This document shows positions 24,308-35,698 of a stretch of 64,000 nucleotides of DNA, in pieces. Under the pieces are notes generated by a model that had not been told where the DNA came from, ran no database searches, and worked only from the letters and a program-made list of their open reading frames with translations. Source of the DNA: Escherichia phage vB_EcoM_EC001. The stretch lies in sequence record MN445185.1; one strand, written 5' to 3'. The position numbers were made by a program, and so were the translations under genes. The stretch's first letter is position 1. Each line of letters starts with the position of its first letter.

Positions 24308-25249
24308 ATGGGCGAACGTTTCATTATCCAGATTCCGTATAACGTTATTGTTGAACCTAACCAGTACCTGGCACAGATTAATGAGCTTCTGGCTGGATTC
24401 TGCCAACGTCAGTTTGTTAAACCGTGGTCCTTTGAGAAACTGTACACCCTGTGCGTGAACAGTGAAACCGGTCACACTTACGTCGAAGGTAAAGTCTTCA
24501 CAGGCGACCAGCGTTTGGAAATAAATGATTTCGAAATGCCGTGGACGTTGGAAGGTGTCGAGTATCGTGGTACGGTTGATCGTCCGCGTTACGTACCTTT
24601 GTACACCATCCCACAATGTATTACTAACGTTATGGGTTGGTCTAAAGCGCGTGGTATTCTGGATAACGGCGTCTGGTATAGCCAAGCCACCAAACTCTAC
24701 GAAGAAGACGGTGAAGCGGCAACCGGTATCAGTAAAAACAAACGCCGTTACATCATGGACGGTATCGGTGATGCTCTGGTCGTGCTGGTTAACTTGATGG
24801 AACTCATTAAGTTTGACTCAACCGATATCACCACATACGTCAACGACGCACGTTCAAAGAAACCACACGCCGGGAACAGTCATTACCTGTTCCACAAAAT
24901 GCGTTTCCATCTTACTTGTGCAGTTGATTATATCTGGGATCAGGCAGGCATCGACTCAGCTAAGCAACTCGAATATAAACACTTCGAGAACAGCGACGCG
25001 GTAATGATCGAATGTCACTTCGCGCAGATGGTCGAATACGCCAATGCGCTGGCTAATGCGTACGATATGACTCTGGAACAGTGCTTCTCCTTGGCGTGGG
25101 ATGAAATCAAAGACCGTAAGGGTTTCCTGAATGCGGACGGTATCTTCGTTAAAGAAGCAGACATGACTGCTGCTGAAATCGAAGTAAACGGTTCCCTTAC
25201 TGTAAAAGATGAGGCGTTTACCGATGGCGAAGAAACTGTTCACGGTTGA
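24308..25249 (+). CDS. hypothetical protein (313 aa)
   Basis: Long ORF with SD AAGGAG upstream. Confidence 0.6.
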   Translation: MGERFIIQIPYNVIVEPNQYLAQINELLAGFCQRQFVKPWSFEKLYTLCVNSETGHTYVEGKVFTGDQRLEINDFEMPWTLEGVEYRGTVDRPRYVPLYTIPQCITNVMGWSKARGILDNGVWYSQATKLYEEDGEAATGISKNKRRYIMDGIGDALVVLVNLMELIKFDSTDITTYVNDARSKKPHAGNSHYLFHKMRFHLTCAVDYIWDQAGIDSAKQLEYKHFENSDAVMIECHFAQMVEYANALANAYDMTLEQCFSLAWDEIKDRKGFLNADGIFVKEADMTAAEIEVNGSLTVKDEAFTDGEETVHG

Positions 25250-25646
25250 TTACGATGAATACGCTGATCGTTTACTGGTCAACAATATCGTCTGGGAAGA
25301 CCACGGTCTAATGCCATGGCATCTGAAATTCCTAGCGGAGCGTTCAGAACAATGCGGTGGTTTGGAGTTCGTACTTACCGACACACCAATTCCGGTACCT
25401 CACATTGCGCCGGTAGAAAATTTGTACTTCTTCGATGCTAATGTGAAGTTATTACAGCAGGTACTCTATACGCATGATTGGCGTGGCGGTTGTCAGTTCC
25501 CAGAGAACGTTTTAAAGCTCTCTGAACGCTTCGGCACCGACATTGCGTACTGTCAAACGTTCCCAAAAGACTTGGGACGAAACAGCGTGGTGCTGTGGTA
25601 TTACCCTCCGGTAGAAGATATCGTAAAAGTGATTATCGAACGCTAA
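25224..25646 (+). CDS. hypothetical protein (140 aa)
   Basis: ORF overlapping the upstream gene end; ATG at 25209 or 25224. Confidence 0.5.
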   Translation: MAKKLFTVDYDEYADRLLVNNIVWEDHGLMPWHLKFLAERSEQCGGLEFVLTDTPIPVPHIAPVENLYFFDANVKLLQQVLYTHDWRGGCQFPENVLKLSERFGTDIAYCQTFPKDLGRNSVVLWYYPPVEDIVKVIIER

Positions 25647-25702
25647 AAAATAAAAGCAAACGAGTACCCCGTTAGGGGTACTCGCATTACTTATTTTTTT
25701 TG
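25645..25702. terminator. bidirectional rho-independent terminator
   Basis: GAGTACCCC-GTTA-GGGGTACTC hairpin flanked by A-tract and T-tract, between convergent operons. Confidence 0.8.
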
Positions 25703-26254
25703 TTACGCTTGAGCCATGTCGGAAATGTCATAAACCAGACCATTCAACTCAGTAACGGTAATCAGTTTACTGATATCGACACCATCGCTCGGAACTTCGG
25801 TCAAATAAACCTCAACCGTACCTGTCCACGCCAGCGACTTTCCATTGAAACGCAGATTGTGTTTCGTGGAGGAAGTCATTGATTCTGTCGCGTAAATCTC
25901 GGTTGCGTCGATTAACCAATTGTATTTGGTTCGCAGCAAGGGAACAAGATCGGCAGCAGTCGACACGCCGGTGCCATCGACAGACAACACGACGTTCTCA
26001 AACAAATGAGCTACGTCCAATCGACGATAAGTAAGACCCATCTTACCGAACGTACCCTTCTCAATGATACCAGAAACATCAAGGTTGGTGTTCAGTCTGG
26101 TGTATTGCTCTGGGTCAGGATCGGCTGCGGTGATGTGTGCCGGGTTACCGAACGACAATTTATCGATGGTCACGCCCTTACCAGTCAGTCCAGGATTCTG
26201 AGACATGATGAGATCGTAAACCAACTCTTTTGCGGTTTTTCCAAATAAACTCAT
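25703..26254 (-). CDS. hypothetical protein (183 aa), last gene of the giant-protein operon
   Basis: ORF co-oriented and downstream of 26277..28538. Confidence 0.55.
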   Translation of the reverse strand: MSLFGKTAKELVYDLIMSQNPGLTGKGVTIDKLSFGNPAHITAADPDPEQYTRLNTNLDVSGIIEKGTFGKMGLTYRRLDVAHLFENVVLSVDGTGVSTAADLVPLLRTKYNWLIDATEIYATESMTSSTKHNLRFNGKSLAWTGTVEVYLTEVPSDGVDISKLITVTELNGLVYDISDMAQA

Positions 26255-26276
26255 AATGCGCTACCTCTGTGGTGTA

Positions 26277-28538
26277 CTATCGCGCTTGTGGTAGGAAAAT
26301 GTTCGCGATTTGTCGTGCTGGTATGATATCTAACGCGGCGTTGACGATGCTGCCCTGTGACCAGGCACTTGCCCAGTTCTGCGCCCAGATAGACGCGTTG
26401 ATTTTAGCCTGCGCGATGCCGTTGGTACGCTCGTAAAGCGTGGCAGCGCCCAACACAGACATAAATTCACTGAACTTGTTATCATCATCAAACACACCAA
26501 TATCAGTTACAATCGGCATGTACATAACACGCGACAGGTCACGAATAGTTACCTGTATATCACACGACAACGGCAGACCGTCAGCACGCCAACCTAAACC
26601 ACCTGTACCGAACTGGAGACTCAGGTTAGTTACCATGGCGTTACGCATGGAATAACGACCGCGAGAATAGCACTCCAGATAGAACGGGTGTGTAAACGAT
26701 TGTTTACCGGTTGCTAACGGACAAACTGCCGCTAACCAGAACGACAACGGGACAATCAGATCCTGGAACACATCTAAGTCGTTACCCGACCAACAGCGAA
26801 GGGGAATGCTTAGCGAGATATCGTCACCTGAGGTGTCTGAGGAGTCCCACACTTCCGGGAAGTCAATCACTGACGAGTTGTACAGCGACATAATCCCTGA
26901 TAAATGCAAGAAATCGAGTGCGCCTGTAAAGGCGGACTTCAACCCAGTAATGAGACCATCGACTGCGTCGAAACCAGTCTTACCACCAGAGAGGTTTACT
27001 TCCAAAGAACGTGCTTTCTGTGTGGCGGAGTTAACCGTGCCAGAGATTTCAGGTTCTTTGGTGGTGTTGGAGAACGAACGCCCTACGGTATCACGTCCAT
27101 CAACACGCCAAGTAATCCACTGCGAACCATTGCGTATCTCCGAAGCGATGTTCGAAGTTAACCCATCCATAGCGCCTTCTAAAATATCGATATAGTCTTT
27201 GAAGACGCTACCGACAGATTCTTTCTGGCCTTGGTCCATCCAGTTTTCAATCTTCCCAATGTCGAGATTATTCTCATCCATTGAGTTTGCTTCGGTCTGA
27301 CTTTTAGCAACCTGAGCCTGGTTCTTTTCAACCTGTGCCATACGCTCGGCAAGCTTTTTACGTTGCGCATCACCTTCGTTTTCGAAGTTTTCAGCCTTAC
27401 CCCCTTGTGACTGAGCATCCTGAATGCTGCCGTTCATCCCTGCTACCAGTTCGTCTTCTTTGTTGTCGACGTTTTCAAAACCAGCATCGTACCCTTTACC
27501 GGCTTTGGCTACGTATTCAAGGTTACGTAAAGAAACCTCGTACTGCGCAGCTTTCTCCAAATGGGTTGTTGAGTACGTCGCTTCCAGATAGAAGTTTCGC
27601 AAACGACGAGCCATGTCCTCTTCGTTACTCGACTCTTTACGAATTTTATCGATGGTTTTCGCCTGGTAGTTGGCTAATGTTTGGTAGCGGTTAATCATTC
27701 GATAGATATCGAACTCACCATCAGCTGTCCAGATTTCTGGCAGCATGGAGTACCACTCTTTGCGGTCGCCGTTGTACTTATTAGCAGTACCGCCTTTCTC
27801 AGACCCATCTACAGCATTAGCAAGCTGGAAAGTCCCTAACACACCCGTTGGCACCAATCGGCGATAAACTAACTGGGTGTTGACCATATTCTGCACAGCG
27901 CGCAGATACAAGTGCATTGTCGGTTTCACGTAGTAGTAGCGAGAAGTCTGCTTGTTCAGCACCATCTTCAACATACGTGGTGTAATTAGAATAACCGCAA
28001 AGGCAACCGTACCTACTGCGGCCCATATTGCTGCGGCGGCAACATACGTCCCCATCGCACGTAACATACCTGGGTAGTCACCTGTGCGTGCCAGATACGC
28101 TAGGTTGGAATCGTACATATTCGCGAAGAATGCAGCTACCCCGATATATCGAGGTTTACCGAAACGACAATGAAGATAAAAACTGTTTTGGTTAATAGCT
28201 TCGTAATAGAAAGTCCCTAGACGATAGGAACCACGTTGGTCTTGACCTTTAACGTACTTTGAGTACGAGCCACGACCTGCATCGGGTTGTGCAAAAGCAC
28301 CTGTTGAACTCGGATCAGCAAACATCGTAAACTGCGGCGGCGCATTTAACGCTTGCGAACCACCCATCGTGGTATCTTCAAACGAGAGCATCGCGTTAGA
28401 GTAACGACGCAAACCCAGGAAGCGCTCATCGCGCTGTGCGGTTGTACCGCCAAACAGGCCGGTTACCCATCCTGAATCTTTTAGTTGTCTTGCTTCCACG
28501 TAAAACCTCTCTGTAAGATGATTAGGGGGTGTTGCCAC
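26277..28538 (-). CDS. putative virion internal/ejection protein (753 aa) with one TM segment
   Basis: Long ORF directly downstream of the SLT giant gene; hydrophobic segment TYVAAAAIWAAVGTVAFAVILITP; function is inference from context. Confidence 0.5.
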   Translation of the reverse strand: MATPPNHLTERFYVEARQLKDSGWVTGLFGGTTAQRDERFLGLRRYSNAMLSFEDTTMGGSQALNAPPQFTMFADPSSTGAFAQPDAGRGSYSKYVKGQDQRGSYRLGTFYYEAINQNSFYLHCRFGKPRYIGVAAFFANMYDSNLAYLARTGDYPGMLRAMGTYVAAAAIWAAVGTVAFAVILITPRMLKMVLNKQTSRYYYVKPTMHLYLRAVQNMVNTQLVYRRLVPTGVLGTFQLANAVDGSEKGGTANKYNGDRKEWYSMLPEIWTADGEFDIYRMINRYQTLANYQAKTIDKIRKESSNEEDMARRLRNFYLEATYSTTHLEKAAQYEVSLRNLEYVAKAGKGYDAGFENVDNKEDELVAGMNGSIQDAQSQGGKAENFENEGDAQRKKLAERMAQVEKNQAQVAKSQTEANSMDENNLDIGKIENWMDQGQKESVGSVFKDYIDILEGAMDGLTSNIASEIRNGSQWITWRVDGRDTVGRSFSNTTKEPEISGTVNSATQKARSLEVNLSGGKTGFDAVDGLITGLKSAFTGALDFLHLSGIMSLYNSSVIDFPEVWDSSDTSGDDISLSIPLRCWSGNDLDVFQDLIVPLSFWLAAVCPLATGKQSFTHPFYLECYSRGRYSMRNAMVTNLSLQFGTGGLGWRADGLPLSCDIQVTIRDLSRVMYMPIVTDIGVFDDDNKFSEFMSVLGAATLYERTNGIAQAKINASIWAQNWASAWSQGSIVNAALDIIPARQIANIFLPQAR

Positions 28539-28547
28539 CCCCTACGA

Positions 28548-31500
28548 TTAGCTTGCTTTCCGACTTACGTTTAACGACGGTGTCGGTTGGGTTATTTCCT
28601 GCCTGCGTGCAGCTGAGCCCGGAGGAGCCACATTTGCCGCTTGCTGGATACTACCACCCCGTGTGTCGTTTGCCGCTCTCGGATTTGATTTCAAAATATC
28701 ACGAATCTCTTTCAAGTAATCGCGAGACTGAATCAGTACCTTGAGCTGCTGAACATCTATCGGGTCACCATTCAGCGTTGGCGTCGATGCTGTAGCATCA
28801 GAAGTTGGGGCGGCAACTGGACGAGCTGCTGCGTTAACCTGCGCTTCCGCGCCTGCTTTCACTTTAGCAACATCCGTTGCAGACAATCCTTCTGCTGCAG
28901 CTTGCGACGCTACGGTTTCGGCTGTTGTTGAGGCATCGGATGTTCCGGAACCACCTGTAGTTGGTGTAGGTGCTGCTGGTCCTACATTACCTGCGGCGGT
29001 AGCCATTGCATCTTGTGCCGCCATGGCCCCTTTCTGCGTCAATGCGTCATCACGACGATTAGCATTATCTGCCGGCAGGTTATCTGCTGGCGACAGACTC
29101 GGATCATTAGCGGCCGGTGCACCCATTGCTGCTGCCGGGTTGGTTGGTGAATTAGGCGACAAGCCTGCAACCATATCCTTCGTCTTACTCGGATCGGCAG
29201 CGACTTCGTTGGCAGAAATTGCGCCCATACGGCGGTTCAGTTCCTGAATAACCCCATCCACGCTACGTATACGACCGTTGCTGTAGAAGACGTTGGCATT
29301 CCCTCTCAATATTGCGGATGTAATCCCAGGAGCACTCGATGCCGCCATATTCGGATTACGCTTCCATGCTTCCAGGAATTTCTTACCGCCGCCCGCACCC
29401 AGGAAGTGATACAGATAAGCCACGGCTGGAGGTGGTGCTTTACCACCCAGGTCACGCTGTGCTTGTTGGATGTTGTCACGAATGAACTGTACACCCAATA
29501 TAGCATTCGCCCACGGGTCCATCTGGTTAACACGCGGAATACCGAACTTCCGCGAATACCCCTTCATCATCCCGTCCCACGTACCGTCAATAAACTGGAA
29601 CAACCCAGACGCCGAAGCATACGGGTTTTTAGCGGTGTAGTTAAATCCGGACTCCGCCTTAGCCATTGCTAACGCCACTGCAGGTGGCACGCCCATCATG
29701 TTCGCCGCATCGGTAATCAATGCTTTGATATTCGGAACGTTCAACGCACCCTTTCTACCCAACATTTCTATCGGGTATTTTTCAGCCAGTGACTTATAAT
29801 CACCGTCTTTCACATCACTCAGGTTAATCGAAGACGAACCAGTGGTCATTGCAGCGTAGTTCCGCACACCACCAACCGCATCGACGACTTGACCCAAGTT
29901 ACCCGGCACACCACCACTCGTACCCGATGGAATGTAGCCTGAGGCGCGAGCACCGTCAGATGACAAAGAATCTCCCGAACTGATGTTCGAGTCTTCTTCA
30001 TCTTCATCGGTGACTTCCAGAGAACTGCGGTTCTTGTTACGATCCTTCCAGCGCGCACGCTTGCCATTATTTCTAATGGCTTTAATCATGTTACGCACGG
30101 CAAGGTCAGCTTCTTTTGACAACAGCTTCAGCGTTTCCAGCTCGGCTTTAATAGACGATGGGTTCGTGTTAGCCTCACCCCCTAATGGGTTGATATTCAC
30201 TTCCCACACCGACTGTCTTATACCACCTTTCAAGCTGTAGGCTGTTGACATCATCAAGCTGATTTCGTACAGGTAACCACCAGTCAGCTTCAAGTTCAGC
30301 GGATCGGCTGTTGGCAGGTAACGCTTCACCCCAACCAAATACGTCATGAATACCGGTAAGAAACGGTCAAAGAACCACCGCTTCAAACGATCTTCTTTCG
30401 GTGTACCGATAGCGTCTGGAACCATCGAGGCGATTGCTTTCTTCCAATCTCCTTTGTAGCTTGCGGTTTTCACGTCAATGTCTTTGATGACGTTCTTCTC
30501 GAATACCGTGATCAACGTGCGGGTGGCGTTATCGATGGTGGTAAAGCCGTAAGTCTTCCAACGCACCGATTCCATCGCATTCATGTCTTTCTGGTCGAGC
30601 ACCGCATTCCAGTCTACCTGAATCTGAACCTGCTCTGTTCCGTCTTCCCAACCCTCTACCTTCGCCAGATTTTTATTACGTTCGTTATCCAACTGTCCAA
30701 GTTTGTTGATAGCTTCATCAACGCCCGCGGACTTAATCCCCTCCACGGCCGGTGCCATTCCGTACTTACGTGCTTTCTTATCGTCCATTCTGGACTTGAT
30801 TGCACGCTCGACTTCATTCTGCACTTCCATAACCTCTTCACCGCTCAAGAACTCCTTCGGTGTAAAGGTTACAACGTCCCAAGCTTTCGAGAAGAAACCT
30901 TGGTTGACTTTGCGTGGGTCTGTTAACGAAGAGAACGCTTTTGCATCCTTAGTCATCTTCATTTTGTTGAAGAGAGTCAGCATGTCCTCTTTCGATACTT
31001 TCTTCGCATCGCCGACGTCAGCCAACTGGATACTGTTCGGCATTGACTTCAGTGCCGTAATCCAGCGGAGATAAATCGGAATAAAGCGCTGAAGCATAAA
31101 CGCTTGGAAGGCCAACATCTCGCCTTTTTCCTCAACGTTAATACCGAACCCTTCAGCTAGCTTCTGAACGTCTTTTCCACTTAGCCCGCGGAGACTGGCT
31201 TGGCCATCTTCCGCGTAAGACACATACTCACGCAATGCGTCTTCTAAGTAACGCGCTTTCGCCCCGTCGTCCGACGACCACTTATCGTAATCACGGAAAC
31301 CGTACTGAGCTAAACGCATCTTATCCAGGTACTGGGTATAGGTAGTCGTTGCAATCCTGTACGCGGCGTAACCAGCCGCAGCGATCGCACCACCGATAAG
31401 AATTGCCGGCCAACCCACCGCAGTCACGACGGCAGATGCCGCAGTTGCCACAGCGGACACCGCGGGTGCCGCCAAACGGGTTACTGCGAACTTACCGACA

Positions 31501-34500
31501 TTCCACGCAGCCTTACCTAAAAGACCTACTGGTTTTAACACGCCCCATTTCGTGATAGAACCGAGTATATTACCCACAGTTCCCAAGATACTGACGATGG
31601 GACCGATGATAGGTAAGCTTTTCACCATATCCCACAGACCGCCAGATTTCCCTTTGGAGCCCTGCGCTTTCTCTTTCTTCTCCTTACGTTTCTCACGCCA
31701 ACGTTTGAAGAAGTTAAGGTAATCGCGTTTTTCATCACCTTCAGGCGGCTTGTTACGTTTACCGAACTTCGCAAACATGGTGCGAATAATGCCATCGTCA
31801 CCACCTGCACGGGATACTGATTCGCGCATGGTGTTAAACCATGACATCTCTTGCAAGCCAATCATTCGGTCCAAGCGTTCGAATAACCTTGCGCCTGCAG
31901 ACTTGGCGGCATTCTTCCCTTTGTTAATAACCCTCCCTGCTGCATCACGGGCGGTCTCAAGGTCTTCCTTCGCATCGCCGTAGACTTTACGGCCAGAAAG
32001 GCCACCTTTCGCGTTCAAATGGCTGCGATAAAACTCAGCAACATCATCGTCGCGTCCAGCCAACCGACGTTCAACTTCGTAACGTGTAGCAATGTCGTGT
32101 CGTGCTCCACGATATCCATCGAGCATATCCCCAGCCCGGCCTCGGAAACCACTGAACCAACCACGCAGGCGGTCACGTCCACGACCAAAGAACGCTTTTG
32201 TTCTTGACCAACGTCCACCAAAACGTTCAGACAGTGACGCTTTCGCGCGATCATACGCCCCGCGTACTGCACGACCGATCGTACTACCGCCACCCCCGAC
32301 GCCCTTCTCCATTTCCTCTGTCCAACTTTCGTCTTCCGGATCTCCCGGTAAACGTTGGTTCAACAGTTTATAGATACGGATAAGGATGTGGTTGGTTTTC
32401 TTGCCGGTTGATGAGAAGAGACTGAAACCACCGCCCCCACCATCTTTACGGCCTTTCCACCAACGCGTCAGTGGGTTGTCGGTAATCATGTCTTTCAGAC
32501 GATCGACACCACGTTTCGCAAAACCGAGCACTTTACCCGGTAAGCTCGTTACACGGTTGAACGCTTTCTGGAGACGTGTCTTTTCTTCGCCTTCCGGAAT
32601 CTCGTTCAGCCAGTCCTTAATCTTACCAACGATGCTGCCCGCTTTCGGTGACAGGAAATCCAGGAACCTTTTCGGTAGCTTAGCCACCTTATTAAAGCCT
32701 AAGCCAATCTTACTGGCCAGACCTTGGGTCAGTGCTTGGATTTTCCCGCCTTTATAGTAGCGGAGTTTACCCGCAGCGGCTAAGTCAGCGGCTGCTAATA
32801 TCAGATTACCTGCGGAGTCAACAATATCACTCCCCAGCTTGATGTCGTCCAGCGTTTTCAGCTGAACCATTTTACCATCAATGACCTGATAGTATTCTCC
32901 AGCTTCCAGACGTGCACCTTGCAGAACAACATTACCGTGGTCATCGTAAACGTCACGGATACCCAGTAGTCCTTTACCGAAAGAGCTTACCGCTTCAAAG
33001 CCACCACGGACACTACCGCTGATAAGGCCACGCATCCGGGTTAAGAAACCAGGACCTTCTCCGCCACCCATTCCTGCGACTTTACCGCGTGCCCAGCCAC
33101 CGAACTGGTTCAGTTTATTCCAGGCACCCTTAACACCACGTTTCGCAAAGCCACCGATTCCTGCTGCGGTGTCGAACAACACACCACCCCAACGACGAAT
33201 AAGCCCATCTTCACCGATGATAATACGACGGCGTTTACCGCCACCGCTACCACCACCAGGACGAGGTGGTCCCATCTCTTCGTCACCAGAACCAGCACCC
33301 CCTGCTAACGAAGCCAGGAGAACCCCTTCTTCGTCCATACTTCTGACGTGTTCCAGAATTTTCTGGAGGGTGTCACTGTTGTTATTACCCCGAATCGCTT
33401 CGATGATGCCGTCAAAGTTATTCCGTGGCGCTTCTTCGCCGCGGTTACGTTGACTCAACAATTCAACAAAGTTAGTCGAGGTTTCACCGTAGAGAACTGC
33501 GGCTAACTGCCGAGGCGACATTCCGCGGCCTTTACCACCGCCACGTAAAGCCGGCGGCAACGACGTGTCATCGGCACCACCATTTACCCCTTGGTTCATT
33601 CGGCGCAGATAGTCGCCTAACGCCGAACCGTTTTGCAGCTTACGTTGAATCTCCTGCTCACGAGTCAACGCACGACCGCTGCGTGTCTTACCCATTGCCA
33701 AGTCATTAAACAAGGTATAGGGATCGGACAGGTCTTTATCCACGCCGAAAGTGTCACTCTTCGCGTCGTAGTTAAAGATACCCGCATCGCGCAATGCTCG
33801 CTCACCGTAAATATTCACCGCCTCGTCGATAATTGCCTGACGTTGGGTGATAGATGACTGCACTGTGGAGATTTTGCGGGCCAGCTCGTTACTTAATTCG
33901 TTGCTACCGCCGACCAAGCTATCAGAATGCCCCTGTAACGCTTCCTTAATGCGTTCTGCGGCGTTTCCTGGCATATACCGATGAAGATGCATCGGGTCTT
34001 TCAGAATCGCTTCTACGTCGAATGCGCGGCCCTGCGAGGCTCGCGACTCGATATAGTCGGCGAGATGCTGTCGATCCTTCTGCGAGAGCGTTTTGCCGCG
34101 GTCAACAAAATCCACAGTGCTGTTAATGGAATTTTGGAGACGCAGGCGTTGTTCATCGTTTGCAACCGCCTTGCGTACGCGGTTACCGACCACTTTGCGG
34201 TCTACGAAACCACGGCTGGTGATGTCATATTCCAGGTCGGCATGTTCGCCATAGCCACGACGGACAGATTTGTTAATCTCTGCCAGCCAGGCAGGAATAA
34301 CTTCAACCAGGCTAAGATATGCTTTACGGTCAAACTTCGCCGAACGGCTTAACGTTTCGCCATTACGCTCGTCAAGGAAGGCTTTCTCGCGGTTTAGCGG
34401 TTGGACAATACCGAGTTCATTCAATACCCGGAACAAATCCGCCAACGGCCCTTGCGTTTCGCCTGCGATAGCTGAGTTCGAGATAGAGGAAAGATTACCA

Positions 34501-35669
34501 AAGGTGAACGCGCCTTTCTGCAGGCGTTTCATGACCTCTGGATTTTTCTCCATCTCCTCACGAGTCCATTTCTGGAGTTTCTCGATTTGTGGGCCGAGTA
34601 GTTTCTTCGCAAGGAATCCGCTACCCCACGCAGTTGCTTTATCACGAGCATTTGTTTTGCGACGTTCAGCAGTCAACGAAGAGCTGTCGCTCATGCCGAA
34701 ATCGTCTTCAACACCCATGCCGAGAACAGACTCTAACAAACCACGACCTTCGCCAAATATACCAGAAATCTTCTTCTTGGTATTTTCGCGAATCATGTCC
34801 ATAAACCCGTCAGCATAACGCAACGGGTTCATCCATTCCGCAGCCTGGCGTTTAACGTTCGCCCAACGGACTTCTGAGAAATCTTCCTTCGCGTAATCCG
34901 GCAATGCCGTGTTCTTCACGATGGCTTCTAAAGCAGGCGTATTACGATCGAACTCCGACTGCTTCATCTTCACGATGTCTTGGATGGCAAACAGGGTACG
35001 GTATTGCAGTTCGAGTTTCTTACGCTCGATGTTTAAGAATACCCCACGGCTTAACCCGGTTAGCAGGTTAATGTCTTTCGCCATCCCAATCATGGTTTGG
35101 TGCATTGCATCCGCACGCATCTCTTTGATGCTGTCGCGGAGCTTATCCTCTACCATGCGGTCCTGCAGCTGACGTTGTTCATCGGCATCCTTTGGCACAC
35201 CTGAGAATACGTCGCCCAGTTCACGATCCATCAATGCCTGATTCGGATCGTAGTTCTGGTAATCTAACTGGTCAGATTTTGACCACTTGTCGATGCGCTT
35301 AGTAACTGCATCCGGCAAGTATTTCTTCATCGTCGGACCGAGTTGGCGCGCTTGCATCTTCAGCGTGCGCTCGGTCTTCACAAGCTCCCCTTTCGTATGG
35401 GCGTAAATGTCCTTTGCTGCAGCTGCCGCTGACTGATAGCCCTCGTATGCATCAGCTGCCGGCTTAGGCATCCCCTTGAGGATAACTTGGTCGCGTTTCC
35501 CTTCTGGCCAGATAGTTGACAACGCCGACTTCCTGGCAACATTCAGGGTACTGAGTATCGGGCTTCGTTTTTTCTCGTCTTTGGGACGGGGTGGTTCACC
35601 GAAATCATCCCAGTCGTCGAGTCTATCTAAATCGATATCATCGAAACCGTCTTTGCCTCTTTTTGCCAT
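28548..35669 (-). CDS. giant virion protein (2373 aa) with lytic transglycosylase (SLT) domain near the C-terminus, internal TM/Ala-rich segment and Gly-rich tracts
   Basis: Uninterrupted 7.1-kb ORF; SLT signature AMAKAESGFNYTAKNPYASASGLFQFIDGTWDGM encoded around 29280-29680; hydrophobic AVSAVATAASAVVTAVGWPAILIGGAIAAAGYAAY. Confidence 0.85.
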   Translation of the reverse strand: MAKRGKDGFDDIDLDRLDDWDDFGEPPRPKDEKKRSPILSTLNVARKSALSTIWPEGKRDQVILKGMPKPAADAYEGYQSAAAAAKDIYAHTKGELVKTERTLKMQARQLGPTMKKYLPDAVTKRIDKWSKSDQLDYQNYDPNQALMDRELGDVFSGVPKDADEQRQLQDRMVEDKLRDSIKEMRADAMHQTMIGMAKDINLLTGLSRGVFLNIERKKLELQYRTLFAIQDIVKMKQSEFDRNTPALEAIVKNTALPDYAKEDFSEVRWANVKRQAAEWMNPLRYADGFMDMIRENTKKKISGIFGEGRGLLESVLGMGVEDDFGMSDSSSLTAERRKTNARDKATAWGSGFLAKKLLGPQIEKLQKWTREEMEKNPEVMKRLQKGAFTFGNLSSISNSAIAGETQGPLADLFRVLNELGIVQPLNREKAFLDERNGETLSRSAKFDRKAYLSLVEVIPAWLAEINKSVRRGYGEHADLEYDITSRGFVDRKVVGNRVRKAVANDEQRLRLQNSINSTVDFVDRGKTLSQKDRQHLADYIESRASQGRAFDVEAILKDPMHLHRYMPGNAAERIKEALQGHSDSLVGGSNELSNELARKISTVQSSITQRQAIIDEAVNIYGERALRDAGIFNYDAKSDTFGVDKDLSDPYTLFNDLAMGKTRSGRALTREQEIQRKLQNGSALGDYLRRMNQGVNGGADDTSLPPALRGGGKGRGMSPRQLAAVLYGETSTNFVELLSQRNRGEEAPRNNFDGIIEAIRGNNNSDTLQKILEHVRSMDEEGVLLASLAGGAGSGDEEMGPPRPGGGSGGGKRRRIIIGEDGLIRRWGGVLFDTAAGIGGFAKRGVKGAWNKLNQFGGWARGKVAGMGGGEGPGFLTRMRGLISGSVRGGFEAVSSFGKGLLGIRDVYDDHGNVVLQGARLEAGEYYQVIDGKMVQLKTLDDIKLGSDIVDSAGNLILAAADLAAAGKLRYYKGGKIQALTQGLASKIGLGFNKVAKLPKRFLDFLSPKAGSIVGKIKDWLNEIPEGEEKTRLQKAFNRVTSLPGKVLGFAKRGVDRLKDMITDNPLTRWWKGRKDGGGGGFSLFSSTGKKTNHILIRIYKLLNQRLPGDPEDESWTEEMEKGVGGGGSTIGRAVRGAYDRAKASLSERFGGRWSRTKAFFGRGRDRLRGWFSGFRGRAGDMLDGYRGARHDIATRYEVERRLAGRDDDVAEFYRSHLNAKGGLSGRKVYGDAKEDLETARDAAGRVINKGKNAAKSAGARLFERLDRMIGLQEMSWFNTMRESVSRAGGDDGIIRTMFAKFGKRNKPPEGDEKRDYLNFFKRWREKRKEKKEKAQGSKGKSGGLWDMVKSLPIIGPIVSILGTVGNILGSITKWGVLKPVGLLGKAAWNVGKFAVTRLAAPAVSAVATAASAVVTAVGWPAILIGGAIAAAGYAAYRIATTTYTQYLDKMRLAQYGFRDYDKWSSDDGAKARYLEDALREYVSYAEDGQASLRGLSGKDVQKLAEGFGINVEEKGEMLAFQAFMLQRFIPIYLRWITALKSMPNSIQLADVGDAKKVSKEDMLTLFNKMKMTKDAKAFSSLTDPRKVNQGFFSKAWDVVTFTPKEFLSGEEVMEVQNEVERAIKSRMDDKKARKYGMAPAVEGIKSAGVDEAINKLGQLDNERNKNLAKVEGWEDGTEQVQIQVDWNAVLDQKDMNAMESVRWKTYGFTTIDNATRTLITVFEKNVIKDIDVKTASYKGDWKKAIASMVPDAIGTPKEDRLKRWFFDRFLPVFMTYLVGVKRYLPTADPLNLKLTGGYLYEISLMMSTAYSLKGGIRQSVWEVNINPLGGEANTNPSSIKAELETLKLLSKEADLAVRNMIKAIRNNGKRARWKDRNKNRSSLEVTDEDEEDSNISSGDSLSSDGARASGYIPSGTSGGVPGNLGQVVDAVGGVRNYAAMTTGSSSINLSDVKDGDYKSLAEKYPIEMLGRKGALNVPNIKALITDAANMMGVPPAVALAMAKAESGFNYTAKNPYASASGLFQFIDGTWDGMMKGYSRKFGIPRVNQMDPWANAILGVQFIRDNIQQAQRDLGGKAPPPAVAYLYHFLGAGGGKKFLEAWKRNPNMAASSAPGITSAILRGNANVFYSNGRIRSVDGVIQELNRRMGAISANEVAADPSKTKDMVAGLSPNSPTNPAAAMGAPAANDPSLSPADNLPADNANRRDDALTQKGAMAAQDAMATAAGNVGPAAPTPTTGGSGTSDASTTAETVASQAAAEGLSATDVAKVKAGAEAQVNAAARPVAAPTSDATASTPTLNGDPIDVQQLKVLIQSRDYLKEIRDILKSNPRAANDTRGGSIQQAANVAPPGSAARRQEITQPTPSLNVSRKAS

Positions 35670-35698
35670 AATGTTTCTTCCAATTCAGGAGCTTAAAA

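Follow-up and report, generated by a model that had tools for sequence, protein, structure and literature searches.

Two genes that follow the gene for a giant virion protein in Escherichia phage vB_EcoM_EC001 (MN445185.1) raise the question of whether their products leave the capsid during infection and build a channel across the cell envelope, or whether they are parts of the tail. The stretch of DNA analysed here, referred to as the window, comprises 64,000 nucleotides. Both open reading frames were found on the minus strand exactly where an initial sequence-only reading had placed them, downstream of an open reading frame of 2373 codons (28548-35669). At the nucleotide level the window shares approximately 97% identity with Salmonella phage SPN3US; by annotation, its genes of 183, 740 and 2373 codons correspond to SPN3US gp237, gp238 and gp239, the names used below. 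Protein identity amounts to 98% for gp237 and 99% for gp238, with strain-level substitutions only; the maximal gp238 reading frame of the window exceeds the annotated SPN3US coding sequence by 13 codons, a difference that probably lacks biological meaning. We consider it very probable that gp238 is a baseplate ring protein, that gp237 is a DUF7941 protein of the outer baseplate, and that their genes are the last two of the late tail operon of an SPN3US-like jumbo phage, a chimallivirus. Work published in 2016 already covered the genes, detected their products in virions, recorded gp238 as essential and predicted a transmembrane segment in it; structures of orthologs followed in 2026. Nothing biologically new is reported here: homology, fold class and gene order were established in the present analysis, while the evidence that the proteins belong to the virion and its tail, and that gp238 is essential, comes from the literature.

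The gene for gp237 occupies positions 25703..26254 and that for gp238 positions 26277..28499 (both minus strand), the latter lying within a maximal open reading frame of 753 codons (26277-28538). Intergenic gaps are short, with 22 nt between gp238 and gp237 and 48 nt between the giant gene and the likely start of gp238. Each gene is preceded by its own Shine-Dalgarno sequence, read directly from the minus strand: AGAGGT at 26263..26268, 8 nt 5' of the ATG of the 183-codon gene, and GAGAGG at 28506..28511, 6 nt 5' of a GTG at 28499. Because the three genes share one strand, are separated by short gaps and have no U-tract terminator in between, gp239, gp238 and gp237 are probably co-transcribed. 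A GC-rich hairpin, AGGGGGUG-GCAA-CACCCCCU, is located between the stop codon of the giant gene and the ribosome-binding site of the ring gene (28524..28543, minus strand); it was rejected as a terminator, as it has no U-tract and its folding z-score of -1.9 is not significant alone. A sigma-70 promoter scan returned fewer matches than shuffled sequence, the model being unsuited to a phage with RNA polymerases of its own, and scans of the window with Rfam and for tRNAs gave no matches.

Two start codons were considered for gp238. The GTG at 28538, which opens the frame of 753 codons, was rejected since a properly spaced ribosome-binding site is absent. The GTG at 28499 is preceded by GAGAGG-N6 and agrees with the 740-aa coding sequence of SPN3US and with the published mass of 82.1 kDa, and the match of the 753-aa frame to phrog_3181 (E 2.3e-274, residues 15-753) begins only at residue 15. 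On these grounds the true product most likely has 740 aa, not 753.

Downstream of the two genes, the bidirectional terminator described in the sequence-only reading proved to be real. The element (25645..25701, both strands) consists of a GC-rich stem of 11 bp at 25660-25685, with an A-run on its left and a T-run on its right, and was called as an intrinsic terminator on both strands. Its RNA folds with -30.2 kcal/mol (z = -5.99), and none of 200 shuffled sequences folded equally well. Erwinia phage Asesino carries the same succession of A-run, stem and T-run at the equivalent position, with a different stem sequence. The terminator closes the tail operon on the minus strand as well as the genes that converge on it from the plus strand.

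The order giant gene - ring gene is kept in the window, phiKZ, Goslar, OBP, a Vibrio phage and Asesino. Only in the SPN3US/Erwinia clade does a gp237-type gene close the tape-measure operon; phiKZ gp183, encoded at the equivalent position, shows no homology to the 183-aa protein. What is conserved across the family is the pair of giant gene and ring gene only, and the arrangement of three genes is not a conserved functional unit.

The giant gene (28548..35669, minus strand) encodes a tail protein orthologous to phiKZ gp181. The SLT domain attributed to it beforehand is present (Pfam, residues 1984-2072, E 1.3e-9), and hydrophobic runs are located at residues 1354-1372 and 1399-1437. Its alignment with phiKZ gp181 covers the N-terminus, a short middle segment and roughly the last 1000 residues, with both the hydrophobic runs and the SLT domain. 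The SPN3US papers call gp239 the tape measure, and it is accordingly regarded as having this role in a contractile tail rather than as an internal virion protein of the podovirus type. Its public label 'tail fiber protein' is misleading.

The position of both genes behind an SLT-domain gene had been taken as the arrangement expected for inner-body or ejectosome proteins, i.e. for proteins that are packaged in the head, leave the capsid and build a trans-envelope channel as T7 gp14, gp15 and gp16 do. Several features agree with this proposal: both proteins are virion components of the infection apparatus, so that the refuting condition named with the proposal, absence from virions, does not apply; one of them has a helix of transmembrane grade; and the giant neighbour with its SLT domain resembles T7 gp16. 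The same features, virion-borne proteins, an SLT domain in the giant neighbour and a hydrophobic helix, are also shared with the PF12699 proteins of phiKZ. However, the T7 and PF12699 proteins travel inside the head and exit via the tail, whereas the location of the window's proteins can be read from published proteomics of SPN3US. In purified virions gp237 and gp238 were both detected (29-55 spectra), while DNA-filled heads without tails (SPN3US am27 sup-) lacked gp237, gp238 and gp239 alike (PMC5105663 Table S4). As all three are absent from tailless heads yet present in whole virions, they are tail proteins. In addition, PF12699, the inner-body domain, gave no match to either protein, orthologs have been resolved in the baseplate by cryo-EM, and the contractile tail of this phage has its own tube conduit. 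The tailless-head proteomics and the ortholog structures contradict a head-packaged ejection role, which we rejected as extremely improbable. As regards the proposed trans-envelope channel, the larger protein belongs to a family that lines the conduit for DNA at the tube tip, which is driven through the envelope (PMC13250141). The 183-aa protein, a DUF7941 protein of the outer baseplate, is no part of a channel.

Evidence for the baseplate ring comes from homology and fold. Neither Pfam nor NCBIfam assigned a family to the larger protein, in its 740-aa or, for Pfam, its 753-aa form. Among PDB sequences the single protein matched phiKZ gp182 (2e-62) and Goslar gp203, and a family profile raised these matches to 4e-208 (9xqs_K) and 1e-200 (11lx_H), respectively. 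By sequence comparison gp238 is accordingly assigned as the ortholog of phiKZ gp182, the 'spacer', and of Goslar gp203, the lower layer of the tube-initiator complex. Homology extends over most of the length, except for a poorly conserved central helical region that is longer in the window protein, and identity to the proteins of known structure (phiKZ, PDB 9xqs; Goslar, 11lx and 36za) is only 25-27%. Shared with them are the position of the gene directly after the giant lysin gene and a C-terminal beta-sheet domain with a tail-tube/Hcp fold. This domain (approximately residues 452-655; 26535..27146, minus strand) was modelled by AF2 with a pLDDT of 80-92 and matched tube initiators, tube proteins, Hcp and Dit; the monomer model as a whole has only moderate confidence (pLDDT 62.6), and its hydrophobic helix is poorly modelled.

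In the cryo-EM papers (including PMC13250141), the orthologs gp182 and gp203 each form a six-membered ring, located between tube initiator and hub and containing a barrel of 24 strands. By analogy, six copies of gp238 would form a ring at the centre of the SPN3US baseplate, with the tube-initiator ring on one side and the trimeric spike hub on the other. This stoichiometry and exact position are transferred from the orthologs. Published spectral counts agree with the copy number: gp238 yielded 32, 29 and 55 spectra in SPN3US virions and none in tailless heads (PMC5105663), and its spectra per kDa reach about half the value of the 12-copy portal, which fits roughly six copies. The C-terminal tube-fold domains would assemble into a beta-barrel that prolongs the lumen of the tail tube, while the largely helical N-terminal domain, including the hydrophobic helix, would touch the surrounding baseplate. 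Upon sheath contraction, tube tip and ring would cross the cell envelope together, and the ring would give passage to the DNA. The gene is essential, as revealed by the SPN3US mutant am28, which carries an amber codon at Q396 (PMC5105663).

The position of the ring corresponds to that of T4 gp48. No sequence similarity was detected to T4 gp48/gp54, the LysM layer of the Pvc7/Afp7 type or the R2 pyocin 'ripcord'; gp238 is two to three times larger than these proteins, which have no counterpart to its extensive helical part at the N-terminus and in the middle. The public label of gp238, 'baseplate wedge protein', is misleading for a ring between tube initiator and hub, and structure-based roles can now replace both such labels and the entry 'hypothetical protein'. 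Three further names in the records were set aside: 'capsid decorator gp77' in PDB 36za is a labelling mix-up, the chain being Goslar gp203 residues 35-682; 'gp182' in the papers on phages G and phAPEC6 denotes unrelated genes; and 'gp238' in a phiKZ preprint is phiKZ's own gp238, an unrelated protein.

Does the hydrophobic helix of gp238 give the ring a second function? The membrane-type segment noticed in the larger protein is genuine. Encoded at 27978..28058 (minus strand), it covers residues 148-174 of the 740-aa protein (161-187 of the 753-aa frame) and has a Kyte-Doolittle value (KD) of 2.37 over 19 residues and a summed Hessa-type dG of about -1.16 kcal/mol (-1.2 when rounded). A predicted transmembrane domain at residues 152-174 had been reported in 2016 (PMC5105663). 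AF2 predicts the region to be helical, with low pLDDT. In gp238, gp182 and gp203 the helix is bordered by the conserved motifs A(R/K)TGR and S-x-YYY-x-KPTMH, and its position is conserved in the family; its hydrophobicity forms a continuum, from transmembrane-like in the SPN3US clade to mild in phiKZ and Goslar. High values are kept across the SPN3US/Erwinia/Vibrio clade down to approximately 36% identity and in the ortholog of a Bacillus phage, and a KD of at least 1.9 was obtained at this position for 58 of 156 diverse family representatives. The homologous segments of phiKZ (KD 1.41, dG about +6.9) and Goslar (KD 0.83) have no transmembrane character. As the helix of the SPN3US clade is far more hydrophobic than its counterparts in the solved orthologs, its environment could differ from theirs.

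These values bear on a dual role, in which the helix of the ring protein, after contraction and loss of the spike, inserts into the host inner membrane and anchors the tube tip there, perhaps jointly with hydrophobic stretches of the tape measure. A host membrane-targeting function of gp238 was suggested by Thomas et al. 2016 (PMC5105663, Table 4). The helix is competent for membrane insertion by two scales, its strong hydrophobicity persists over the phylogenetic range given above, AF2 is unsure of its packing, the ring arrives at the envelope with the tube tip, and the adjacent gene encodes a tape measure with hydrophobic runs. However, phiKZ and Goslar infect in the same mode with segments that lack transmembrane character, and helices buried at oligomer interfaces often score as transmembrane. 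Moreover, the composite model of Goslar gp203 contains residues 35-682 as one unbroken sequence; if this reflects modelled residues, the equivalent of the helix appears to be ordered in the baseplate of the virion. Statements on membrane engagement or on the tape measure were found in neither of the two structural papers, and we regard the dual role as unlikely. Less likely still is a more specific version, according to which the N-terminal helix is a true membrane-insertion element in the SPN3US clade and about a third of the family: once the spike is shed, six copies and the hydrophobic stretches of the tape measure would enter the inner membrane jointly, fixing the conduit and helping to shape the invagination from which the early phage infection vesicle arises. 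In the literature examined we found no phage-encoded membrane-engaging factor for this vesicle of chimalliviruses. The conserved helix, which ranges from mild hydrophobicity in the solved orthologs to transmembrane grade in SPN3US, renders the membrane-targeting suggestion of 2016 testable.

Where in the tail gp237 resides was assessed by the same combination of profiles and models. Pfam returned DUF7941 (PF25613) as the only family above cut-off for the 183-aa protein (95 bits, E 7e-27, gathering cut-off 27; the match spans profile positions 1-176 of 276), and NCBIfam gave no matches. The protein further matches phrog_2935, 'virion structural protein'. It represents a short form of DUF7941, with the N-terminal module and a tail; it ends at residue 183, and the C-terminal globular domain is absent. 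Other close DUF7941 paralogs were not detected in the window by local HMM or tblastn searches. A PDB search with the single sequence returned noise only, and the family profile was needed to match phiKZ gp127 (E 1.7e-4). The AF2 model had one significant PDB match, again phiKZ gp127 (9xqd_0; Foldseek E 5.7e-5, TM 0.56/0.66 over 161 columns), a remote one at 15% identity. Homology of gp237, as a virion protein, to phiKZ ORF127 was already recorded in PMC5105663. With phiKZ gp127 (PDB 9xqd) and Goslar gp22, gp23 and gp34, the protein shares the DUF7941 N-terminal module, the association with virions and the restriction to chimalliviruses.

In the outer peripheral baseplate of phiKZ, each star lobe contains one fixed copy of gp127, which ends the gp139 band; gp127 was docked as a predicted model at approximately 4.4 A resolution. 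According to a proposal in the Goslar preprint, association with the peripheral baseplate is universal among DUF7941 proteins. The label of gp237 can be replaced by that of a DUF7941 outer-baseplate protein, whose N-terminal globular module and conserved tail would sit in the outer peripheral baseplate. Instead of being such a fixed subunit, gp237 might assemble head to tail into long filaments and so make up a 'fibre cloud' that searches for the host, the role proposed for the abundant Goslar proteins gp22 and gp23. Its architecture is that of Goslar gp23, an N-terminal module and a tail with no C-terminal domain; purified Goslar gp22 makes filaments; and the C-terminal tail of gp237 combines low pLDDT with invariant residues (T168, L170, G172 and Y175), as in a docking peptide. 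Abundance speaks against such filaments. With 40, 32 and 32 spectra in SPN3US virions and none in tailless heads (PMC5105663), gp237 reaches approximately 1.6-2.0 spectra per kDa, i.e. 1.3-2.3 times the value of the 12-copy portal, which suggests a copy number in the tens, compared to about 2000 copies estimated for Goslar gp23. Given also that gp127, the nearest solved relative, is a fixed subunit, we judge a fibre cloud to be rather unlikely. As a component of the outer baseplate, gp237 would probably use its conserved C-terminal tail to dock onto other baseplate or DUF7941 proteins.

The ORF scan placed three genes in succession on the minus strand: gp239 (28548-35669, 2373 aa), in which Pfam recognises an SLT domain (residues 1984-2072), and downstream of it the maximal ORF of gp238 (26277-28538, 753 aa, GTG start) and gp237 (25703-26254, 183 aa). 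This confirms the arrangement that the sequence-only reading had described. The three genes are gp237, gp238 and gp239 of Salmonella phage SPN3US, to which the region is 97.4% identical, and approximately 20 other full-length Seoulvirus genomes are 95-98% identical to it. While the 753-aa ORF is present as that reading stated, its start had to be corrected: GTG 28538 lacks a ribosome-binding site with proper spacing, and GAGAGG-N6 precedes GTG 28499, which yields 740 aa in agreement with the SPN3US CDS annotation and the published 82.1-kDa mass. Co-transcription of gp239, gp238 and gp237 is plausible because the gaps are short, the strand is common and there is no internal U-tract terminator. 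Between the gp239 stop and the ribosome-binding site of gene 238 lies a GC-rich hairpin, AGGGGGUG-GCAA-CACCCCCU (28524-28543, minus strand), which has a z of only -1.9 and no U-tract; it may serve RNA stability or processing, or have arisen by chance. In several Salmonella phage SPFM records (LR5359xx) the match to 25600-28600 is split into about 40 short pieces, and both smaller proteins are encoded as broken, frameshifted versions; this fragmentation suggests error-rich assemblies rather than true gene decay.

Published genetics and virion proteomics bear directly on the function of these proteins. Gene 238 was ranked essential and is represented by the amber mutant am28 (stop at Q396), and the accompanying homolog table pairs gp237 with phiKZ ORF127 and gp238 with phiKZ ORF182 (Thomas et al. 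2016, PMC5105663). In Table S4 of that study the spectral counts for am11 sup+, am11 sup-, am27 sup+ and am27 sup- were 40, 32, 32 and none for gp237, 32, 29, 55 and none for gp238, and 5, 6, 100 and none for gp239. The am27 sup- preparation consisted of tailless heads filled with DNA. All three proteins are thus tail-resident virion proteins. The idea that gp237 and gp238 belong to the infection apparatus of the virion therefore holds, both being detected in virions by mass spectrometry, but the inner-body or ejectosome role proposed for them fails, since both belong to the baseplate of a contractile tail and neither was found in the DNA-filled heads: gp238 is probably located at the tube tip and gp237 at the periphery. 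The essentials were already known from the genetics and proteomics of 2016 and the ortholog structures of 2026; our addition is modest, a family-wide survey of the gp238 helix and a means of testing membrane insertion.

Public labels of gp238 conflict ('hypothetical protein', 'virion structural protein', 'baseplate wedge protein'). No family in Pfam or NCBIfam matched the protein; phrog_3181 matches it across its full length, and its three PDB sequence matches are phiKZ gp182 (9xqs), Goslar gp203 (11lx, named 'tail tube initiator complex protein') and one chain of 36za. The latter, chain rp, is present in six copies and labelled 'Capsid decorator gp77'; comparison with the Goslar sequence (L006:12226-14367) identified it as gp203 residues 35-682. 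The name is accordingly a mislabelling, either in the composite virion entry or in a derived file, not a conflict of function. In the phiKZ atlas (PMC13250141), gp182 is a 'spacer' in six copies whose beta-sheet domains build a 24-stranded barrel, the docking site of the tube-initiator ring (gp88), with the trimeric hub gp101 attached below and the sheath initiator gp62 touching the outside; the ring is counted in the assembly driven with the tube through the envelope. The Goslar preprint describes a two-layer tube initiator complex of gp203 and gp62, equated with T4 gp48 and gp54. The order giant lysin, then ring gene is kept in phiKZ, Goslar, OBP, a Vibrio phage and Asesino, and the family occurs in 295 phage records; an exhaustive search found 2,670 representatives of 50%-identity clusters.

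The hydrophobic helix attributed to the 753-aa protein is real and is the one noted by Thomas et al. 2016 (PMC5105663). Residues 161-187 (AMGTYVAAAAIWAAVGTVAFAVILITP) are the one strongly hydrophobic stretch of the ORF, with a Kyte-Doolittle (KD) value of 2.37 over a 19-residue span and a summed Hessa-type free energy of about -1.2 kcal/mol, an approximate figure that ignores position dependence. In alignments, the stretch is flanked by a conserved A(R/K)TGR and a nearly invariant S-x-YYY-x-KPTMH motif, which makes it a homologous part of the N-terminal domain. The 2016 study suggested that the helix is released into the host membrane after contraction. KD values of at least 1.9 all through the SPN3US/Erwinia/Vibrio clade, to about 36% identity, and of 2.34 in a Bacillus phage ortholog are of the kind such release would call for, but values are lower in phiKZ (1.41), OBP (1.06) and Goslar (0.83), and the Hessa-type sum is +6.9 in phiKZ versus -1.2 here. 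Among 156 diverse representatives KD formed a continuum (58 at 1.9 or above, 55 at 1.6-1.9, 43 below 1.6). Moreover, gp203 residues 35-682 form a single unbroken sequence in the Goslar composite model; if this sequence corresponds to what was modelled, the baseplate of the virion contains the homologous segment in ordered form. We thus consider membrane release unlikely; the best reading is a conserved helix, buried or at an interface, whose SPN3US version falls at the TM-like extreme of the range. That a TM-grade helix and the tape measure together engage the inner membrane and contribute to the early infection vesicle appears somewhat less likely still; neither structural study (PMC13250141; Goslar preprint) mentions the giant SLT/tape-measure protein or treats membrane engagement.

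gp237 matches DUF7941 with 95 bits (Pfam cut-off 27), covering only profile positions 1-176 of 276, and also matches PHROG 'virion structural protein' families. The Goslar preprint describes DUF7941 as restricted to chimalliviruses and as composed of a globular domain at the N-terminus, a linker and a C-terminal domain that is missing from some members, e.g. Goslar gp23; head-to-tail oligomerisation is predicted, Goslar gp22 makes filaments in vitro, and association with the peripheral baseplate is proposed. The gp237 family profile retrieved phiKZ gp127 (E 1.7e-4), which was also the sole significant PDB match of the AF2 model (pLDDT 74.7; E 5.7e-5, TM 0.56/0.66). phiKZ gp127 belongs to the outer peripheral baseplate, where the gp139 band of each star lobe ends in one copy. 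The last 16 residues of gp237 (168-183; 25703-25753, minus strand) combine low model confidence with invariant T168, L170, G172 and Y175, a pattern suggestive of a docking peptide that would join the protein head to tail or to the baseplate. Relative to the portal, spectral counts per kDa were higher by a factor of about 1.3-2.3, which as a rough estimate suggests tens of copies, not thousands. The gene follows the ring gene in the SPN3US/Erwinia clade only: in phiKZ this place is taken by gp183, unrelated to gp237, and in Goslar, OBP and the Vibrio phage by a convergent gene. Conservation therefore does not extend to the three genes as a functional unit.

The bidirectional terminator anticipated downstream was borne out. 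An 11-bp GC-rich stem (25660-25685), with an A-run on one side and a T-run on the other, separates the gp237 gene from convergent plus-strand genes, was scored as a terminator on both strands and folds with -30.2 kcal/mol (z = -6.0); a counterpart whose stem has diverged occupies this position in Erwinia phage Asesino. The convergent neighbours, a MazG-like nucleotide pyrophosphohydrolase (24308-25249, plus strand) and a small phrog_9256 protein of unassigned function (25209-25646, plus strand), overlap by 41 nt and share this terminator with the tail operon. At the other end, the genes for virion RNA polymerase beta, gp240 and gp241, run in the opposite direction, away from the three genes. 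Just 29 nt (35670-35698) separate the gp239 start (35669, minus strand) from the first beta start (35699, plus strand), so at least one promoter must be inside neighbouring coding sequence. The Goslar record carries annotated group I introns beside its RNA polymerase beta-subunit genes (L005:4270-4646 and L006:1818-2246, both Goslar sequence); an Rfam scan of the whole window returned no family, group I introns included, at the gathering threshold.

gp239 is publicly labelled 'tail fiber protein' or 'lytic transglycosylase', and the SPN3US papers name it tape measure. gp239 and phiKZ gp181 align at the N-terminus, a short middle segment and the C-terminal ~1000 residues. Residues 1354-1372 and 1399-1437 of gp239 form two hydrophobic Ala/Gly-rich runs, typical of tape measures thought to enter the membrane. 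These runs align with phiKZ gp181 residues 1297-1356.
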